Source: Promethearchaeota archaeon (GTDB taxonomy: Archaea; Asgardarchaeota; Lokiarchaeia; Sigyniarchaeales; SOKP01). From it: a stretch of 64,000 nt of DNA. The stretch spans positions 121,497-185,496 of the forward strand of contig JBHLLT010000004.1 in NCBI GenBank assembly GCA_048938855.1. The letters run 5' to 3'. Below are positions 1,812 through 59,867 of this stretch, piece after piece. A program made the translations under genes and the position numbers. Every line of letters begins with the position of its first letter. Within the stretch, counting starts at the first letter, position 1. The notes under the pieces were generated by a model. It did no database searches and was not told the origin of the DNA. It saw only the letters and a list, made by a program, of their open reading frames with translations.

Positions 1812-1821
1812 AAAAAAAAAA
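1812..1821 (-). terminator. oligo-T terminator after SECIS-1
   Basis: 10 consecutive T on minus strand directly 3' of the element. Confidence 0.55.
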
Positions 1822-1886
1822 CTGAATCCCTCACAGGGATAATCATCCAATAACTACCATTTTTTTATTGGAATCATTTTTTCAAG
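1822..1886 (-). promoter_or_regulatory. SECIS element 1 (eukaryote-type core)
   Basis: RNA CUUGAA-AAA-AUGAU-UCCAAUAA-AAAAAUGGUAG-UUAUUGGA-UGAU-U-AUCCC-UGUGA-GGGAU-UCAG, starting right after the stop of a TGA-containing ORF. Confidence 0.85.
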
Positions 1887-1887
1887 T

Positions 1888-2091
1888 TTAAGATAAATCT
1901 ATTCTGTGAAAGAGGCTTACGTATAAAACGATCAAAACAATTGCAGTTAATAAAAAGATCACTGAAGCTATAAGATAATTAACATAAAAACCTCACGCCC
2001 CCGATTCAAGATAACAAGCTATAGATGTTATTACTGATCCTATTATGGCTACAAGAATTATTGCTTTCTTTAAGTTTTCATTCAACAGCAT
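1888..2091 (-). CDS. putative small 2-TM selenoprotein 1 (67 aa, TGA at 1993-1995)
   Basis: MLLNENLKKAIILVAIIGSVITSIACYLESGA-U-GFYVNYLIASVIFLLTAIVLIVLYVSLFHRIDLS; frame stays open and hydrophobic after TGA; SECIS follows. Confidence 0.8.
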
Positions 2092-2204
2092 CACTTTTTT
2101 CTGTTTGAGAGTTTGTTTTAATCAAATATTAATTCGATTAAATATAAAAAATTTGACTATGAAATAATCGCAAGTAGAAATATTAAAAAGGAAAAATAAA
2201 AGTA

Positions 2205-2603
2205 TTATTCATTTAGAAGAATTTTTAATCCTTGAATAAGTTCTTGAGGAGTTACTCCATATAAAAGTGCCTGATGCATCATTTTAATGTTTATATCAAT
2301 TAGAGAATCTAAGTCTTTTCCCGGTTGAAATTTCACCATTAGTTTCTTGATAATTTTATATACTGAGAATTTATTTTGCTTTAATTTCCCAAAATAGCCT
2401 CCATATGCCAAGAAGAGGTTTGCCATGAGTTCAAGGTCTTCTTGTGAGTTATTTTTATAACACTCTTCGCATACCACTCCAAAACTAAGTCCTTCCTGAT
2501 ATATTGAAGCTCCTCGTTTGATTTCATTTCTACAAATCCCACATTTTATCACATCACGAGATAAATGGGTGGTCGGTTCTATATTAATTGAATTGATTTC
2601 CAT
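2205..2603 (-). CDS. zinc-finger hypothetical protein
   Basis: CGIC...CEEC pair; island promoter motif at 2625-2639. Confidence 0.75.
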   Translation of the reverse strand: MEINSINIEPTTHLSRDVIKCGICRNEIKRGASIYQEGLSFGVVCEECYKNNSQEDLELMANLFLAYGGYFGKLKQNKFSVYKIIKKLMVKFQPGKDLDSLIDINIKMMHQALLYGVTPQELIQGLKILLNE

Positions 2604-2737
2604 AATATTCTTTAATACTAGGTATATTTAAAGAAAAAAGGGTAGAAAATAGTTTGATAAATGTATATAAAACCCGAACTATTTTCACATTTGATGTCTA
2701 AATATTAAAATAAAATAATGATTTTAGCAAAATATTA

Positions 2738-2803
2738 CCAAAATCCTGGGCGAGGATAATCATCCAATAACTACCATTTTTTTATTGGAATCATTTTTCT
2801 TGG
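2738..2803 (-). promoter_or_regulatory. SECIS element 2
   Basis: CCAAG-AAAA-AUGAU-UCCAAUAA-AAAAAUGGUAG-UUAUUGGA-UGAU-U-AUCCU-CGCCC-AGGAU-UUUGG. Confidence 0.85.
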
Positions 2804-2818
2804 ATTTAAACCTGAATT

Positions 2819-3034
2819 TTACTTATTCGATTTTCTTTTATCTTCTATGTATAACATTCTGATTACACCGAGTAACACACAAGCAATTATGAAACTAGCA
2901 AACATCACATATGGAGGAAATAATAAATAACTACCTCAAGCTGAAAGCATCGACATCACTAACATGCTAATACCAAAAATTATGAAAATAAAAGAAACAA
3001 CACCTAAAATTCCTTTAACTACTGCATTTGACAT
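2819..3034 (-). CDS. putative small 2-TM selenoprotein 2 (71 aa, TGA at 2936-2938)
   Basis: MSNAVVKGILGVVSFIFIIFGISMLVMSMLSA-U-GSYLLFPPYVMFASFIIACVLLGVIRMLYIEDKRKSNK. Confidence 0.8.
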
Positions 3035-3097
3035 AAAAATCATTCTATTTTGTTATTCACTTATCCTGAATTTTAAAATCGTTTAGATCTTTAATCT

Positions 3098-3307
3098 TTA
3101 TTTATTTTGTATTAATGGGAGCACAATATATATTACAATTGATACTATTGCAATGCTATCACTAATTATCGCGGGTATTGTGAGATATCTTATATTTCAT
3201 GATAAAACAGGGTAATAGTACGGGGAAAGTATATGTAAAACGACACCGATAACACCAAATATACATATAAGACTCAATAGAATTGTCTTGATTTTTTTAG
3301 TTTTCAT
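3098..3307 (-). CDS. putative small 2-TM selenoprotein 3 (69 aa, TGA at 3197-3199)
   Basis: MKTKKIKTILLSLICIFGVIGVVLHILSPYYYPVLS-U-NIRYLTIPAIISDSIAIVSIVIYIVLPLIQNK. Confidence 0.75.
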
Positions 3308-3432
3308 CTGAAATCTTTATTTTCTGGCATTTATATTTATTTTTGTATATTATTTTCACTAATCACTATTTTAAGTTTATTATCAAAAGTTCTATAATTT
3401 TGTATTAGTTGAAAGCTTACTTTGAATATTTC

Positions 3433-3497
3433 CCGAATCCCTCACAAGGATAATCATCCAATGACTATCATTTTTTCATTGGAATCATTTCTTTCGG
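3433..3497 (-). promoter_or_regulatory. SECIS element 3
   Basis: CCGAA-AGAA-AUGAU-UCCAAUGA-AAAAAUGAUAG-UCAUUGGA-UGAU-U-AUCCU-UGUGA-GGGAU-UCGG; A-U to G-C compensatory pair relative to copies 1 and 2. Confidence 0.85.
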
Positions 3498-3515
3498 TTT
3501 AAATTTGAGTAAGAT

Positions 3516-3740
3516 CTAGCCTCTTATATCTTCCACCACTAAAACTATTAATACAACAATATAGACCAATGCTAAAAAGAGGCCTATAATCACTGAATAA
3601 ACTGGATTTACTGATATTGTCCATGTTGTCGATGGAGCTCAAACAACAGTCATCATTGAGTCGATTATTGCTCTAAAAATGAAAAATAATGCACACATTA
3701 TTAGAACTACTTTGGTTGTCCACTTCAATTCAAATCTCAT
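3516..3740 (-). CDS. putative small 2-TM selenoprotein 4 (74 aa, TGA at 3639-3641)
   Basis: MRFELKWTTKVVLIMCALFFIFRAIIDSMMTVV-U-APSTTWTISVNPVYSVIIGLFLALVYIVVLIVLVVEDIRG; both Trp are TGG; GAGTGAG upstream. Confidence 0.8.
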
Positions 3741-3772
3741 TTTACTCACTCAACATATTAATCACAGAACAT

Positions 3773-3979
3773 TTATGTTCGTTTCGCTTTCCTAATATAA
3801 AGTATATATGCCACAACCAAGATTCCCGCAATTGAGAAGCTAATAATTGCTGGGATGGGCGTCTCTACTAGCAGATGTCCTCAAGCTAATATGTTATATC
3901 CAATTATTAATCCAACACCCATAACCAAGAAAACAACTATGAATGTGATTAAAAGCCCTTTAATTACATCCTTTCTCAT
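3773..3979 (-). CDS. putative small 2-TM selenoprotein 5 (68 aa, TGA at 3881-3883)
   Basis: MRKDVIKGLLITFIVVFLVMGVGLIIGYNILA-U-GHLLVETPIPAIISFSIAGILVVAYILYIRKAKRT; AAGTTTTATATA promoter-like site near 4031-4042. Confidence 0.8.
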
Positions 3980-4097
3980 TTTAATCATTAAATTTCTATT
4001 TAATTTATGACGATGAAAAAGAAAAATCATTATATAAAACTTGTTTAATAAAAGTTTGAAAATTTGGATTTGGTAAAAGCTGAAATAATTTTTTTAA

Positions 4098-35554: not shown

Positions 35555-37354
35555 ATGGAAAGGAAAGATTTAACTATAATCATATTAGCCATTGTTTTAA
35601 TTTTCTCTAGTATTGGGAATGGTATTTTAGCTTTTATATTTACTAGAATAGATAATAAAGAATACGGAGAAATTATTAAAGTAGTAAGCAGAAAAAATCC
35701 TTTTACTATGGATCCTTGTAATTCTTGGGATAGCAATTCAAATAATGTATTTAATCAAGTACTAGAGACTTTACTTGCCTATGATTTAACTGACCCTAAG
35801 TTACCTATTATAGGAAGACTTGCAGAATCCTGGGACTTTCAAAGTTCAAAATTCGGTACTAACATCACATTCCAGCTACGTGATGAAGTTTATTTTCATG
35901 ATGGTTCAAAACTTACTGGAGAATGTGTTTTACATACTTTCGAAAGAATTAATTTCTTCGGTAATGCAACAGGAACCTTAGATCCCGATCTATATGTGAT
36001 GGCTGCACCACATTCTCTTTATAAATTTCCTAATAAACCACCAGGGTTAACACCTATCTTTAATCATACCTTAAGTTTTATTAATCCTATGGATGAGTTA
36101 GAAGTTACACTAGTGTTGAATGCCCCATTTGCACCTGTTGAAGGGTTATTGGCTTATAGTGCAAGCTCAATTGTGCATCCTGATTCTACTCCAGCAGATA
36201 GAATGTTGGTTCTCGGGAAAGATTTGGTCATTGGAACTGGCCCATTCAAATTGGTAAAATATGTTCCAAATTCAGAGGTTCGATTCTCTAGATGGGAAAG
36301 GTATTGGAGGACGGGTGCATATTTTGATAGCATCGTGTATATCTATTATAGAAATGATGTCACAGCCAATAATGCTATGTTATCTGGAGATATCGACTGG
36401 CTAGGTCAGGGGATTGCCTCACTTAAAGCCCAATTTGAAGCTGATCCAGATATAACTGTGACTGGAGATGGAATCCATGCATACATTAATGATACTAAAT
36501 ATCATTACATTGAATTTAACAATGAAATTATAAATGTTACATGGAGAAAGGCAATATCATATGCATTTAACTATAGCTATCTTATTAAAGAAATACAACA
36601 AGATACAGTTGTAAGGGCCCATTCTCTAGTACCCCCTGGGTTTCCCGCACATAATGCTTCAGTAAAAGCTGCTAATTATGATATACCTAAAGCAAGACAA
36701 TATATGCAGAAGATGGGTTATGGATATACTGCTGGAGTTCCTTGGCAAGTAGGCTCTCAATTGGGAGATAAATTTTTTCCTGGTAGTGATGAAAATCTCT
36801 GGAAAGCCGCAGAATTTATTCCTACAACTAACGCATCGGGATGGACATTACCCACAGCTAATTTTAGTAATAATGCTTTTAATTTTTGGCTGGAATTGGG
36901 GGATCATTTCATGGAACTACTTATACAACGATTTACTGAAGATATGGATTTGATTGGAATTAAAATAATCCCACAATTATTATCATGGGATCAGTTATTA
37001 GATGTTGGGCTTAATCATCGTGAAAGACTCCATCTCTATTATATTTGGTGGGGCCCTGATTATTTTGAAACATTTAATATGATTGACCCTTTGGTTAATC
37101 CAGATTCTTCAATGAACTTTGGAGGAATCAATGAGGCTGAAATAACAACACTCTTGGCTGTTACTGCTGCTGAAACAGATACTCTTCAAAGATATGAGTA
37201 CTATAAGAAACTCCAATATTTAATTCATGATAAATATTTCTGTCAAATACCTTTAATGTATTTTAAACTCTACCATGTCCATGCCTCAGATTTGAAAGGG
37301 TTCCCATATAACGTAATGAGACTTCATTACTGGTATTTATGCTATCGTGAATAG
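35555..37354 (+). CDS. ABC transporter substrate-binding protein, family 5 (peptide/nickel type)
   Basis: LAESW, FQLRDEVYFHDGS, IGTGPFK, RKAISYAFN; N-terminal TM anchor. Confidence 0.9.
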   Translation: MERKDLTIIILAIVLIFSSIGNGILAFIFTRIDNKEYGEIIKVVSRKNPFTMDPCNSWDSNSNNVFNQVLETLLAYDLTDPKLPIIGRLAESWDFQSSKFGTNITFQLRDEVYFHDGSKLTGECVLHTFERINFFGNATGTLDPDLYVMAAPHSLYKFPNKPPGLTPIFNHTLSFINPMDELEVTLVLNAPFAPVEGLLAYSASSIVHPDSTPADRMLVLGKDLVIGTGPFKLVKYVPNSEVRFSRWERYWRTGAYFDSIVYIYYRNDVTANNAMLSGDIDWLGQGIASLKAQFEADPDITVTGDGIHAYINDTKYHYIEFNNEIINVTWRKAISYAFNYSYLIKEIQQDTVVRAHSLVPPGFPAHNASVKAANYDIPKARQYMQKMGYGYTAGVPWQVGSQLGDKFFPGSDENLWKAAEFIPTTNASGWTLPTANFSNNAFNFWLELGDHFMELLIQRFTEDMDLIGIKIIPQLLSWDQLLDVGLNHRERLHLYYIWWGPDYFETFNMIDPLVNPDSSMNFGGINEAEITTLLAVTAAETDTLQRYEYYKKLQYLIHDKYFCQIPLMYFKLYHVHASDLKGFPYNVMRLHYWYLCYRE

Positions 37355-41183: not shown

Positions 41184-42725
41184 TTATTCTAAACTATATC
41201 GTCTCTTAAGCATGCGAATTAATTGATCATCAATCTGGGCTAAATCTATTAGTTCAGTTATCGTAGCTTTTGAACCTTGCAATAGTTTCCATTTATTAAG
41301 TTGTTTATGTAAATCGTGCTGTTCAACTAATATTCTTTCACTTAATTGAATTAAACCATATTTTTCAGCTATTTTTTGAGCTTGAGTTATTGAATCCTCA
41401 GCCTTTTTTAAATCTAATGTAATTAATTCTAATTTAGATTGTAATAAATATGTCTCAGCTAACCACCAGAATGAATTTGCATTTTTAGAGATATACAACA
41501 TCTGATGTATATAAGATTTGATGTCATTTAGTAATTCTAAATTATTGGTATTTCGTAATTCATTTAATAATAAATCACAAAGAGTAAGGAGCGCTCTAAA
41601 AATAGTTTCGAAGAATAGAGAGGTTTCAGAGATAGTTTTTTCTTGGACCAGCTCTATCAATATTTCTTTAGCTTTTACTTGGTTACTAGCTAAAGGACTA
41701 GTTTTTAAAAATAAGGCCTTATTCACTTGAAATAATACTTTAGTCATTTTATATTCAAAAGTCTCCATTATTTGTTCCATACGATTAATATAATATTTTG
41801 CTCGCTCAAGATCATTGTCATTGAGAGTAAACAATATACAATAATCCAGATTTTCGGTCAGACCGAAACTGTCTCCCATTTCTTCATAAATATTATTACT
41901 CTTATCTAGCAATTTTAAAGCTCTTTTTAAATCACCTTTTTCCTCATAAAAGTAAGCAAGTCCCTCAAGTGCCCATGCAGTTCCCCTCTTATGGCCTATA
42001 TCTTTTAAAACGTTATAACTTTGGGTATAATACTCAAAAGCTCTATCAAGATTACCTCCAAAAAAACAAAAATCTCCTAATCTTCCAAAACATAATCCCA
42101 TTAAGTATTTGAAATCAATTTTTTCTGCTAACTCTAATGCTTTTTGTATGCATTTTTTAGAATATTTCCAATCAATTTTATGGTAAAAATAAATATTTCC
42201 TTTTAAATAAGTAGATAAAGCAATTGCTCGGTCATCACCGATTAGTTCTCGCAGTTTAAGACTATTTTCCATGTTTTTTCTAGCTTTGTTAATGTCTCCT
42301 TCATATATATAAATCCAACCTTTAATATCTGACATTAGAGCCCATCTTTTCATTATTTCTGTAGGGTTTTCATGAGATATTTTCTCTAATAACTTTTCAA
42401 TATTCGTAATTAAATCGAAAATTTCTTTTAGTTTTCCTTTTCTCCATAAAATCTGTGATTTAGTAATCAAAGCGTCTATTAAATGGATATTGGGTTTCAA
42501 TTTCTGACTATGTTGACTTACTTTGTCTATGAACTCAAGCGCTTTGTTATAATTTCCTAATTCAAAAAGGAGAGAACTCTTAATAGTATAGCAAAAAATT
42601 TGTTCATAAATTGAAAGATCCTTATTTTCCTCGAGTTTACTTATTTCATGGAGAGCTTCCTTATACCTACATTTATTCTTAAGTAGTTCTATATTGGAAA
42701 ATTCCTTAGTCTTTGAATATAACAT
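41184..42725 (-). CDS. TPR-repeat protein (copy 2)
   Basis: same length (513 aa) and same KRRYSLE end as copy 1. Confidence 0.85.
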   Translation of the reverse strand: MLYSKTKEFSNIELLKNKCRYKEALHEISKLEENKDLSIYEQIFCYTIKSSLLFELGNYNKALEFIDKVSQHSQKLKPNIHLIDALITKSQILWRKGKLKEIFDLITNIEKLLEKISHENPTEIMKRWALMSDIKGWIYIYEGDINKARKNMENSLKLRELIGDDRAIALSTYLKGNIYFYHKIDWKYSKKCIQKALELAEKIDFKYLMGLCFGRLGDFCFFGGNLDRAFEYYTQSYNVLKDIGHKRGTAWALEGLAYFYEEKGDLKRALKLLDKSNNIYEEMGDSFGLTENLDYCILFTLNDNDLERAKYYINRMEQIMETFEYKMTKVLFQVNKALFLKTSPLASNQVKAKEILIELVQEKTISETSLFFETIFRALLTLCDLLLNELRNTNNLELLNDIKSYIHQMLYISKNANSFWWLAETYLLQSKLELITLDLKKAEDSITQAQKIAEKYGLIQLSERILVEQHDLHKQLNKWKLLQGSKATITELIDLAQIDDQLIRMLKRRYSLE

Positions 42726-42847
42726 ATGATTGAAGTTAAGGTTGAATTTATAATCTTAACTACTTTTGCAGTTAAGTAATTATAAATACATTTATGTATA
42801 AATAATTATATTTCTTTACAAAAAAGACAAATTAAGTTACCTTAATT

Positions 42848-57050: not shown

Positions 57051-58439
57051 TTGGAAAATTGGAAATCTTTAATAGAAAATAGAGAGTTAATTGTAAGTGT
57101 TGTAGGTATAGGGCGTATTGGATTACCTACAGCATTATTGATATCAAATGAAGGATTTAAAACATATGGGATTGATATTGATGAAAAATTAGTGGAAAAA
57201 GTAAACATAGGAGGAGGAAATCCTCCAATACCATACATAGTAGATGAACCAGAACTTGAAGATTTACTAAAAAAAGCTATATTAAATAATAAGTTGAAAG
57301 CAACAACAAAATTTAGAGAATTTGTTCCACTCTCGAATTTTATAATCATTTGCATTCCTACGCTCATAACAGAACAAAAAGTTCCAGACTATAGTGCCAT
57401 TAATGAAGTACTAAATCAAATAGGTTTGTTGAAAACGAAATTAGAAAGTAAAATTATTATCTTCGAATCCACAGTAGGTCCAAATTATATTGAAAAAGTA
57501 GCAATTCCATTTATTGAGCAAGTCTCAGAATTAAAAGTGAATAAAGATTTCTGGATAGCTTCTTGTCCTGAACGTGCGAATCCTGGAGATATTATAAAAA
57601 GTCTAACCACATTTACTCGAATTGTAGGTGCAAGCAATAAAGATACTCGCAATATTGTATCGAATTTTTATGAAACTGTTTTCAAAGTGGATATTTTTAA
57701 AGTTACTAATATCCGAACAGCAAATTCAGTTAAGCTTATAGAGAATATTTTCAGAGTTGTAAATATAGCATTTGCAAATGAAATTGGTCAATTAATGAGG
57801 AAATTAGACATTGATTATATGGAAGTGTTAAAAGGCGCAGCAACAAAGTATAATTTTTTATCCCATTTTCCTGGACCAGGTGTTGGAGGCCCTTGTCTCC
57901 CTAGTAATCCGTATTATCTTATTGATGATGGATATAAAGTCTCATTTACTCCAAATCTAGTGAGAGCTGCCACGGAAGTAAATCAACGACAACCCTTCCA
58001 TATAATCGAATTGATTTTTGAGGGTCTTAATAAAATAAATAAAACAATTGCAAATACAAAAATAGCGATATTAGGTATTAGTTATAAAGCAAATGTAAAA
58101 GATATTCAAATTTCTAGTGTTATACCTATTATAAGTGAATTGCAAAAGAATAAAGCGATAATAGGAATTTATGATCCCTACTACAAAGAAGAAGAAGCAT
58201 TAGGGTTTAAAATTGAAAGAAATTATGAATTTATAAAACAGGAATACCCCATGATTATTATTCACACTGATCATAATGAATTTAAATCAAAAAATTTTAG
58301 AGAGTTTCTTGGTGTTTGTGAGGATCTTGAAGTTATTGTAGATTGTCATAATACTTTTGAAGATGGAGAGATCCCTAACAATATTTATTATTTCGGGGTT
58401 GGGAGACCAATGAAATATATAAATAAGGAAAAAAGTTAG
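57051..58439 (+). CDS. nucleotide-sugar dehydrogenase (UDP-glucose/UDP-ManNAc family)
   Basis: GIGRIG, ESTV, CPER, KLIEN, GPGVGGPC, GISYK. Confidence 0.92.
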   Translation: MENWKSLIENRELIVSVVGIGRIGLPTALLISNEGFKTYGIDIDEKLVEKVNIGGGNPPIPYIVDEPELEDLLKKAILNNKLKATTKFREFVPLSNFIIICIPTLITEQKVPDYSAINEVLNQIGLLKTKLESKIIIFESTVGPNYIEKVAIPFIEQVSELKVNKDFWIASCPERANPGDIIKSLTTFTRIVGASNKDTRNIVSNFYETVFKVDIFKVTNIRTANSVKLIENIFRVVNIAFANEIGQLMRKLDIDYMEVLKGAATKYNFLSHFPGPGVGGPCLPSNPYYLIDDGYKVSFTPNLVRAATEVNQRQPFHIIELIFEGLNKINKTIANTKIAILGISYKANVKDIQISSVIPIISELQKNKAIIGIYDPYYKEEEALGFKIERNYEFIKQEYPMIIIHTDHNEFKSKNFREFLGVCEDLEVIVDCHNTFEDGEIPNNIYYFGVGRPMKYINKEKS

Positions 58440-58462
58440 AAAGATAATTGTTTTACTTTTAC

Positions 58463-58522
58463 CTCAGAATTCGTGCGGAATTCACTATTAAATCCTAACG
58501 TTTTTTGATTTAATTTGTTGAG
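58463..58522 (-). promoter_or_regulatory. SECIS-like element 4 (variant without AUGA/GA core)
   Basis: CUCA-ACAA-AUUAAAUC-AAAAAACGUUAG-GAUUUAAU-AGU-GAAUUC-CGCAC-GAAUUC-UGAG. Confidence 0.65.
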
Positions 58523-58530
58523 ATTTTTAA

Positions 58531-58668
58531 TTATTTTTTATTTTCTTCTGCTTCACTTAATTTAAGTAGTCTTTGCGCTCGTTTATACCACATATTTAAC
58601 ATGCCTCAACTTGTATTATAGCAATCATCATCAAACTCTAAATCTAGATAATCTTCTTTATCTTCCAT
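58531..58668 (-). CDS. putative soluble selenopeptide 6 (45 aa, TGA at 58606-58608)
   Basis: MEDKEDYLDLEFDDDCYNTS-U-GMLNMWYKRAQRLLKLSEAEENKK; AGGTGG SD; element 4 follows. Confidence 0.7.
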
Positions 58669-58815
58669 TATGTATAACCACCTAAATTCTATTTTTCTCA
58701 AAATAAAGAAAAGATATTAAAGTAGTGTTTATAAAAAATAAAACCTTAGATGAGAGCAAGAATATTTTATAAATACTTTTGGAGTTGTAATAATTTCCAA
58801 TAAAAGTGGATGAAT

Positions 58816-58882
58816 AATCTCAAATTCTTTGCGGAATTCATAAGAATAGATCCTAGCATTTAACGATCTTGTTCCTGAGATT
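58816..58882 (-). promoter_or_regulatory. SECIS-like element 5 (variant)
   Basis: AAUCUCA-GGAACAAGAUC-GUUAAAUGCUAG-GAUCUAUUCUU-AU-GAAUUC-CGCAAA-GAAUU-UGAGAUU. Confidence 0.65.
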
Positions 58883-59040
58883 TATTTATTTGATTTTTGT
58901 GTGTTTTTTTTCTGTCTTCTTTTTTTTATACCTCTTATACATGCCATTACACCATCAATGATACCTCAACCAGTACAATGAAGATCATCTTGGTATGAAA
59001 CTAAGACTTCCTTGTCCATTCTATTTTTCCATTCTGACAT
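58882..59040 (-). CDS. putative soluble selenopeptide 7 with CxxU motif (52 aa, TGA at 58966-58968)
   Basis: MSEWKNRMDKEVLVSYQDDLHCTG-U-GIIDGVMACIRGIKKRRQKKNTQKSNK; element 5 abuts the stop. Confidence 0.75.
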
Positions 59041-59189: not shown

Positions 59190-59867
59190 ATGCTATTTCA
59201 ATATTGGACCGTAATCGAAGTTTTTTTTAATTGGGTTGCTGAATCTGCGGCAATAATGATGGTTTTAAGTGGGGCAATGGCTATTACTTGGTTTGGATAT
59301 GAAAGAAAACGCAGGGGATCTTTTACTAAAAGGAAGGCAGAAGTAGAAAAATTTGATGTAACTAAATTTTTAAGAGGAATGTCTTATTTAGGGCTTATAC
59401 TTGGTGTGTTTGTAATATGGAGTGGAGTAATGGGTTTAATTCTGGACATACCTCCCAGTTTTGCATATCGGGATGTAACTGAAAATGGAGCAAACCACTT
59501 CACATGTATATTTTTAATTGTGATTGGAATTGCTATGTTTTTTAAACCAATTTCAGATTTACCACTTTCTAGTATTCTTGGACTTTTGGGAGGTGCAGCA
59601 GCAGCAATCATTATCGCGCTTCTTGTTCCAGATGGTGTAGTTCAATGGATAGGTGGTTTTATCAATCCCAAATGGGTGCTTATGATAATTTTTATCATAG
59701 TCGCGGTAGTGGTGGGGCTGACTGCTAAATTTTATATAGGTACCCTTCAAAAAATATCAAAATTCCTATCTTGGCCACCAATTGCATTTATAATTATGGT
59801 TTTTTGTTTTGTCCAAGGATTCTGTTTATGGATTGGTGGATTTAGTATCTTTGCTAACCTTCTCTAA
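59190..59867 (+). CDS. polytopic membrane protein
   Basis: about 6 TM segments; GTGA SD. Confidence 0.8.
   Translation: MLFQYWTVIEVFFNWVAESAAIMMVLSGAMAITWFGYERKRRGSFTKRKAEVEKFDVTKFLRGMSYLGLILGVFVIWSGVMGLILDIPPSFAYRDVTENGANHFTCIFLIVIGIAMFFKPISDLPLSSILGLLGGAAAAIIIALLVPDGVVQWIGGFINPKWVLMIIFIIVAVVVGLTAKFYIGTLQKISKFLSWPPIAFIIMVFCFVQGFCLWIGGFSIFANLL

Follow-up and report, generated by a model that had tools for sequence, protein, structure and literature searches.

Introduction

In Asgard archaea, selenocysteine (Sec) insertion is associated with the lokiSECIS, also called the Asgard type I eSECIS-like structure (Mariotti et al. 2016, PMC4989117; Huang, Xiao and Zhang 2024, PMC11227280). This element lies just 3' of a selenoprotein ORF that carries an in-frame UGA. 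It has AUGA (rarely GUGA) directly before a main stem of about 9 bp, an apical loop of about 11 nt that starts with adenines and ends in an invariant G usually preceded by A, and GA (or AA) directly after the stem, forming a tandem G.A core with the 5' GA. The eukaryotic SECIS (types I and II) is located in the 3' UTR and contains a corresponding non-Watson-Crick quartet (kink-turn), which is the binding site of SBP2. The euryarchaeal SECIS of Methanococcales and Methanopyrus contains a GAA_A asymmetric bulge between a GC-rich lower stem and an upper stem of three G-C pairs (PMC11881835, PMC13188914), and the bacterial SECIS is a hairpin inside the ORF, with 16-37 nt from the UGA to the apical loop (rule quoted in PMC13188914). 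Every published model of the Asgard and eukaryotic SECIS is anchored on the AUGA...GA quartet, and search tools require it.

Here, we examined a 64,000-nt stretch of a Lokiarchaeia genome (the window; Promethearchaeota archaeon, assembly GCA_048938855.1, contig JBHLLT010000004.1, positions 121,497 to 185,496). A first-pass annotation of the window had noted two elements, 4 and 5, that keep the outer helix and both hairpin loops of three SECIS elements about 55 kb away (elements 1-3) but lack the quartet. We found that two tiny, unannotated selenoprotein genes are each followed by a conserved three-armed RNA that keeps the loop and layout of the lokiSECIS without its AUGA/GA core, so that this core is probably not needed for reading UGA as selenocysteine here.

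Structure of elements 4 and 5

The genome has 30% GC and 3.95 Mb. Two short ORFs, each interrupted by one in-frame TGA, lie between a convergent 462-codon gene that ends at 58439 and the next gene at 59190, both on the minus strand. Gene callers truncate these ORFs at the TGA. Each ORF is followed at once by an RNA of about 64 nt, predicted to form a three-way junction. The features, all on the minus strand, are as follows.

58882-59040: gene 5, a 52-codon ORF, MSEWKNRMDKEVLVSYQDDLHCTGUGIIDGVMACIRGIKKRR..., with the Sec codon TGA at 58966-58968 (CxxU motif)
58817-58881: element 5, starting directly at the stop codon of gene 5; outer helix AUCUC (58877-58881) paired with GAGAU (58817-58821)
58843-58875: element 5, hairpin 1, GGAA-(CA)-AGAUC paired with GAUCU-(A)-UUCU, with the 12-nt loop GUUAAAUGCUAG at 58853-58864
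58822-58839: element 5, hairpin 2, GAAUUC-CGCAAA-GAAUUU
58531-58668: gene 4, a 45-codon ORF, MEDKEDYLDLEFDDDCYNTSUGMLNMWYKRAQ..., with the Sec codon TGA at 58606-58608 (Cx4U motif)
58461-58524: element 4, starting 7 nt after the stop codon of gene 4; outer helix AUCUCA (58519-58524) paired with UGAGGU (58461-58466)
58486-58515: element 4, hairpin 1, an 8-9 bp stem (AUUAAAUC/GAUUUAAU) with the 12-nt loop AAAAAACGUUAG at 58495-58506, flanked by CAA on the 5' side and AGU on the 3' side
58467-58483: element 4, hairpin 2, GAAUUC-CGCAC-GAAUUC
1818-1887: element 1, canonical lokiSECIS with the loop AAAAAUGGUAG, behind a 67-codon membrane ORF with TGA (1888-2091)
2735-2804: element 2, canonical lokiSECIS behind the TGA-containing membrane ORFs at 2819-3043 and 3098-3307
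3429-3498: element 3, canonical lokiSECIS behind the TGA-containing membrane ORFs at 3516-3740 and 3773-4030

First, we folded the two elements. The minimum-free-energy fold of element 4 gave exactly the junction listed above (z = -2.5). In contrast, element 5 alone did not fold better than shuffled sequence (z = -1.0), and its support comes from comparison with relatives. Neither hairpin 1 was flanked by AUGA or GA. Elements 1-3, on the other hand, matched the published lokiSECIS point for point: AUGA, a 9-bp stem, an 11-nt loop AAAAAUGNUAG that starts with five A and ends in AG, and then GA. They also carried a second hairpin and an outer helix, as did the seven other canonical copies that we found in this genome behind vhuD-type, prxL, hdrA-type and small membrane ORFs. 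The three-armed layout is therefore common to both classes, and what sets elements 4 and 5 apart is the missing quartet.

Thus, the observation made in the first-pass annotation was confirmed, and all five elements indeed follow ORFs with an in-frame TGA. One detail was inexact: only elements 2, 4 and 5 have a second loop starting with CGC, whereas elements 1 and 3 have UGUGA-type loops. The statement that the stems differ entirely was also too strong, since stem length (about 9 bp) and loop length (11-12 nt) are the same as in the canonical element.

Pattern searches alone were of limited use. The bare 9-mer AAAYGNUAG, the loop motif proposed in the first-pass annotation, was not above chance in the window (9 matches against 6.3 expected). 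When a flanking stem was required, the five elements stood out among the 22 places that passed genome-wide, the rest being short-stemmed with none of the other features. A loose scan for AUGA-stem-loop-stem-GA gave 466 mostly spurious hits in this genome. No SECIS family of Rfam appeared at the gathering threshold or at E up to 10, for either the variant or the canonical elements. Furthermore, tblastn found no further paralogues of the two proteins in the genome, and Pfam has no family for them.

Conservation and distribution of the element

The 751-nt locus was alignable at 66-84% identity in 35 of 36 sampled species genomes of the genus. RNAalifold on a plain MAFFT alignment of both gene sets recovered only hairpin 1, because of a 1-nt shift in hairpin 2; hence, structure-aware alignments guided by a covariance model were used. 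On 62 copies from 31 genus loci, 95.0% of pair positions were standard pairs and 12 of 21 pairs showed compensatory double changes. For example, the hairpin 2 stem of element 4 changes from GAAUUC/GAAUUC to GAGUUC/GAACUC in relatives. Homologues of genes 4 and 5 in other genera carried the same element with different stems, such as GGUCAAGUC/GAUUUGAUC and GGUCCU/GGACUU. On 70 copies from 10 genera, 95.8% of positions were paired and all 21 pairs covaried, whereas sliding the 3' partners by one column dropped pairing to 64% or less. These alignments were fitted to the model and the genomes are related, so the figures overstate independent events, although the pattern is nonetheless clear. The outer helix is conserved in sequence (AUCUCA/UGAGAU), with compensatory changes in only a few of the 70 rows. 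In many gene-5 copies its 5' strand is coding (...NLKE stop), and part of this conservation may therefore be protein-coding.

Subsequently, the distribution was examined with covariance models. The model R1, built from 19 copies, scored element 4 at 83.7 bits and element 5 at 47.8 bits. It found exactly two copies per genome in 33 of 36 sampled genomes of the genus, five copies in one genome where the locus is duplicated, and none in 24 genomes of other families. Extra R1 hits in the genome under study (on contigs C62, C79 and C49; E 0.07-4.9) had no upstream TGA ORF and were dropped. A broader model, R3, scored elements 4 and 5 at 71 and 62.1 bits, respectively. It found one or two copies in 108 of 135 genomes of the family and none in 125 genomes of 26 other Asgard families. 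The genus-by-genus distribution of the R3 hits matched that of the gene-5 protein profile in 11 of 13 genera and was close in the other two (g1 and g18).

Association with in-frame UGA

The first-pass annotation had held that its reading would fail if the pattern were commonly found after genes without in-frame TGA. This was not the case: the covariance-model hits at the E-values used occurred only behind the two TGA gene families, once or twice per genome, and all 62 copies in the 31 genus loci followed a gene-4 or gene-5 ORF. In these loci the stop codon lay from 11 nt upstream of the model match to about 15 nt inside it, and in one genome of another genus (g28) it lay beyond hairpin 1.

We next examined whether the sequence after the TGA is translated. 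TGA was conserved in 28 of 28 gene-4 and 31 of 31 gene-5 orthologues extracted from the genus, and in every gene-5 profile match in 105 genomes of the family. It was never replaced by TAA or TAG in more than 100 genomes. The 15 codons after the TGA showed pN/pS of 0.31 for gene 4 and 0.43 for gene 5, against 0.84-1.0 in the other two frames (about 1 for gene 4 and 0.84-0.99 for gene 5). Residues directly next to the TGA on both sides were the best conserved (CTGUGIIDG and CYSTSUGMLNMWY).

Gene 4 has Cys at exactly this codon in four species. In one of them (genome G022) the codon is TGT and the element is still there, with a reduced score. In the other three (genomes G029, G032 and G097) the element is gone, while the neighbouring gene 5 keeps both its TGA and its element. 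This is the Sec/Cys exchange typical of selenoprotein families and also acts as a natural deletion test, although the three losses probably stem from one event.

The genome carries Sec machinery: tRNA-Sec lies next to SepSecS, with a SelB-like gene 5 kb away (region 35767-36657), on contig C49. We also tested whether genomes of the family that lack the locus have lost this machinery. SepSecS was present in 10 of 10, and there was thus no informative co-loss.

Relation to the canonical elements

A covariance model of the canonical class, R2, was built from eight canonical copies of this genome. Two further copies (C34 and C49) were misaligned by MAFFT and left out of the seed, and the outer helix was left out of the model because its register differs between copies. 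R2 scored canonical copies at 65-81 bits (80.1, 80.0 and 81.2 bits for elements 1, 2 and 3, respectively), whereas it scored element 4 at 10.7 bits (E = 2.3) and did not list element 5. In the 1.3-3.7 kb of each of 32 loci searched, R2 gave nothing above 18.6 bits, and 10 of its 12 weak hits were the variant elements themselves, in register. No canonical SECIS was therefore found near the gene pair. In the other direction, R1 ranked elements 1, 2 and 3 as hits 3, 5 and 8 in the window, at 23, 21 and 16 bits. R2 found canonical elements in 40 of 40 sampled genomes of the family, so that one Sec machinery must serve both classes.

The published loose type I rule (GA_[G/A]A with a 7-15 bp stem and up to 2 mismatches) could be satisfied by alternative pairings in 43 of 70 variant elements, and we replaced it with a test in register with the covarying hairpin 1. 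Here, GA_[G/A]A occurred in 3 of 70 and AUGA in 1 of 70 variant copies, against 8 of 8 canonical copies. The junction strands carried no conserved purines and no conserved GA dinucleotides. A kink-turn consists of tandem sheared G.A/A.G pairs next to a 3-nt bulge between two helices, and judged from sequence alone this motif is absent.

The apical loops, in contrast, are of the same kind. The variant hairpin 1 has a 9-pair helix in the model, with a loop of 11 nt (31 copies), 12 nt (38 copies) or 10 nt (1 copy). AAA lay within the first 7 loop bases in 70 of 70 copies, the final base was G in 70 of 70, and the loop ended in UAG in 66 of 70. Three loop sequences (AAAAAUGGUAG, AAAAAUAUUAG and AAAAAAGCUAG) were identical between variant copies and canonical copies of this very genome. 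The proposed motif AAAYGNUAG is thus too narrow, fitting 43 of 70 variant loops, and the proposed YGY hairpin held for 53 of 70.

Discussion

Taken together, these findings suggest that elements 4 and 5 are working Sec insertion signals of a distinct class, a kink-turn-less variant of the lokiSECIS, and we consider this reading likely on comparative evidence. In this view, each element sits in the 3' end of the mRNA of a mini-selenoprotein gene, about 80 nt after the UGA, and would direct the Sec-specific elongation factor and Sec-tRNA(Sec) to read that UGA as selenocysteine. The variant keeps a 9-11 bp hairpin capped by an 11-12 nt loop that is A-rich at its 5' side and ends in (U)AG, a second small hairpin usually with a GCAA-type loop, and an outer helix that closes a three-way junction, whereas the AUGA...GA core is replaced by a tight junction with no conserved purines. 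Our comparative data show the structure, its conservation, its exclusive link to UGA genes and translation through the UGA. Sec insertion, the physical RNA fold and factor binding are predicted from sequence comparison. It remains an inference that the apical loop and junction geometry, not the kink-turn, are what the Sec machinery recognises in this lineage, and that the variant arose from the canonical type in the ancestor of this family. The latter rests on parsimony, because AUGA/GA is found across Asgard lineages and in eukaryotes (PMC4989117, PMC11227280), whereas the variant was found in one family only. Mariotti et al. found no SBP2 in Lokiarchaeota (PMC4989117), and a cell without the kink-turn reader of eukaryotes could plausibly lose the kink-turn.

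Other explanations were considered and appear unlikely. The element might be a different 3' RNA inherited with the two paralogous genes, such as a terminator, a stability element or a protein-binding site, with the UGA recoded by some other, unseen signal. Indeed, it sits at the 3' end of short transcripts and is followed by T-runs, its outer helix is conserved in sequence rather than by covariation, and one Cys-containing orthologue keeps it. However, no other SECIS candidate lay within the 32 loci searched, the element copies the lokiSECIS stem and loop dimensions, loop sequence and three-armed layout, it was not found behind other genes, and it is missing in three species where Sec became Cys while the neighbouring TGA gene keeps its own copy. 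Termination at the UGA, giving micro-peptides of 20-25 residues, perhaps with a restart at a downstream AUG, or a non-coding RNA, with a 3' structure unrelated to recoding, seems the least likely. A conserved Met 5 codons after the UGA in gene 4 (...UGMLNMWY...) makes a second micro-ORF in the same frame conceivable, but gene 5 has no conserved start codon after the UGA and is nevertheless under purifying selection in that frame, and the conserved residues around the UGA, its in-frame replacement by TGT in four species with the ORF continuing, and the absence of TAA or TAG replacements also speak against it.

It is also very unlikely, although not formally excluded, that the elements contain a G.A core in an alternative fold and are ordinary eSECIS-like elements read in the wrong register, for example by pairing of the GA at the loop/3'-arm boundary (UAG-GA) with the GA of the 3' outer strand (UGAGAU) around hairpin 2. 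The 43 of 70 elements that meet the loose rule prompted this idea, the recurrent pattern being AGGA...GA. These alternative stems need 1-2 mismatches in 7-9 AU-rich pairs, differ in register between copies, and compete with hairpins in which nearly every pair covaries. Moreover, the first GA of the alternative core is Watson-Crick paired in hairpin 1 and changes to AA or AG when the closing pair covaries, in-register GA_[G/A]A and AUGA are rare, and the canonical model scores the elements at 19 bits or less.

The interpretation in the first-pass annotation was therefore only partly supported. These are SECIS-like elements behind genuine UGA-containing genes, they share architecture and apical loop with the canonical elements 55 kb away, they lack the quartet, and, as it suggested of current SECIS finders, a model trained on canonical copies misses them. 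Its loop and hairpin motifs were too narrow, and the suggested bearing on how the eukaryotic SECIS arose is weak: the variant is confined to one Lokiarchaeial family and two lineage-specific genes, while the AUGA/GA type is present in every sampled genome of that family, and the variant is thus more likely derived than ancestral.

A broader reading is possible but tentative, and we hold it somewhat less likely than not. In Asgard archaea the kink-turn might not be what the Sec machinery reads; the true determinant would be the A-rich ...UAG apical loop, presented on a roughly 9-bp stem within a three-way junction and recognised by the archaeal SelB/eEFSec-like factor, by the ribosome or by an unknown adaptor. 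The AUGA/GA core would then be an accessory feature, perhaps an L7Ae handle or a folding aid, that can be lost without loss of function and only later became essential in eukaryotes as the SBP2 docking site.

The variant is a natural, long-maintained class of elements without the quartet, present in more than 100 species-level genomes and, on this reading, working alongside canonical copies in the same cells. The kink-turn accordingly appears dispensable for Sec insertion in a lineage that has no SBP2, which makes testable the question of which SECIS feature the conserved archaeal/eukaryotic machinery actually reads. Because the two classes share identical apical loops, they offer ready-made material for binding and mutagenesis experiments. 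It also follows that SECIS-anchored selenoproteome surveys of Asgard archaea undercount. The 2016 and 2024 papers and a 2026 review define Asgard elements by the quartet and list 11 archaeal selenoprotein families, none of them these mini-proteins. Literature searches on the lokiSECIS, and on SECIS together with three-way junctions, found no description of a quartet-less or three-armed Asgard element.

Comparison with known systems

Like the eukaryotic SECIS, the variant is located 3' of the coding sequence, would act at a distance from the UGA, and has unpaired adenines in the apical loop; it differs in having no quartet, a shorter stem and a three-armed architecture, and no match to the Rfam models. 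It shares with the euryarchaeal SECIS its position in the 3' untranslated region of an archaeal gene and the absence of a known SECIS-binding adaptor. However, there is no GAA_A internal loop and no run of three G-C pairs in the upper stem: hairpin 1 of element 4 is an uninterrupted AU-rich helix, that of element 5 has a CA/A internal loop, and the element has two hairpins within an outer helix. Unlike the bacterial SECIS, elements 4 and 5 start at or after the stop codon.

The closest system is the lokiSECIS. Both elements lie just 3' of a selenoprotein ORF, both have a main hairpin of about 9 bp with an 11-12 nt apical loop whose first bases are adenines and whose last base is an invariant G, usually preceded by A, and both have a second hairpin and an outer helix, which all canonical copies of this genome also carry. 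The variant differs in lacking the AUGA before and the GA/AA after the stem, which define the published models and give the eukaryote-like kink-turn, in its tighter junction, in the conserved sequence of its outer helix (AUCUCA/UGAGAU), in escaping a covariance model trained on canonical copies, and in its restriction to two lineage-specific mini-genes in one Lokiarchaeial family, where the two classes are found side by side in the same genomes.

In the window, a cluster of five small (67-85 codon) predicted two-helix membrane ORFs was observed at 1888-4030 on the minus strand. Each ORF contained one in-frame TGA between the hydrophobic stretches, and the TGA lay in an A-U-G context in three of them. 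These ORFs are served by only three canonical lokiSECIS elements, so two gene pairs appear to share one SECIS. A further similar ORF (…GSCGUGG…) with its own canonical SECIS was found on contig C66 of the same genome. In addition, on contig C49, a canonical-type element at 285278-285332 (plus strand) was found to follow an ORF with two adjacent in-frame TGA codons (…VVHADUUADVMKERPDYGKF…). This element was of the AA variant and scored 29 bits with R2, the covariance model built from canonical copies. We also observed that the Sec machinery of this genome is clustered on contig C49 (35767-42808), as follows.

35767-36657, minus strand: SelB-like gene
41348-41440: tRNA-Sec (anticodon tca)
41651-42808: SepSecS

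Subsequently, the position of the stop codon was compared with that of the kink-turn-less element among the orthologues of gene 4 and gene 5, the two mini-selenoprotein genes. The stop codon varied from 11 nt upstream of the element to about 15 nt inside it, as seen at the gene-4 loci L011, L014, L017, L018, and L021 and at many gene-5 loci, and it lay beyond hairpin 1 in genome G114. In many species, the 5' outer strand AUCUCA is coding (…NLKE); the ribosome must then melt the SECIS to finish the protein. In the gene-5 orthologues at L008:1866-1935 and L012:1804-1873 (loci of genomes G027 and G005, respectively), the ordinary stop codon, which lies inside the 5' part of the element, is itself TGA (…NLKE-TGA), whereas other species have TAG at that position. 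One mRNA would thus carry a Sec-UGA and a stop-UGA about 90 nt apart, the latter inside its own SECIS. Furthermore, one complete genome of the genus (G006, contig C1, 189981-191481 and 2131810-2132551) carried extra copies of the locus, namely three gene-4 copies, one gene-5 match, and five elements.

Finally, we examined the layout of the canonical lokiSECIS copies of this genome, which were located at the following positions.

Window 1818-1887: canonical lokiSECIS
Window 2735-2804: canonical lokiSECIS
Window 3429-3498: canonical lokiSECIS
Contig C20, 90900: canonical lokiSECIS
Contig C34, 438275: canonical lokiSECIS
Contig C49, 285278: canonical-type element, AA variant
Contig C64, 8526: canonical lokiSECIS
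Contig C66, 27672: canonical lokiSECIS
Contig C74, 54248: canonical lokiSECIS
Contig C77, 2604: canonical lokiSECIS

Nearly all of these copies, although this was less clear for those on C20 and C49, have a second hairpin 2-3 nt after the GA, often with a GNRA-like loop (GUGA or GCAA), and an outer helix that closes a three-way junction. By comparison, the papers that we consulted describe the element as a single hairpin with an internal loop and a lower stem.
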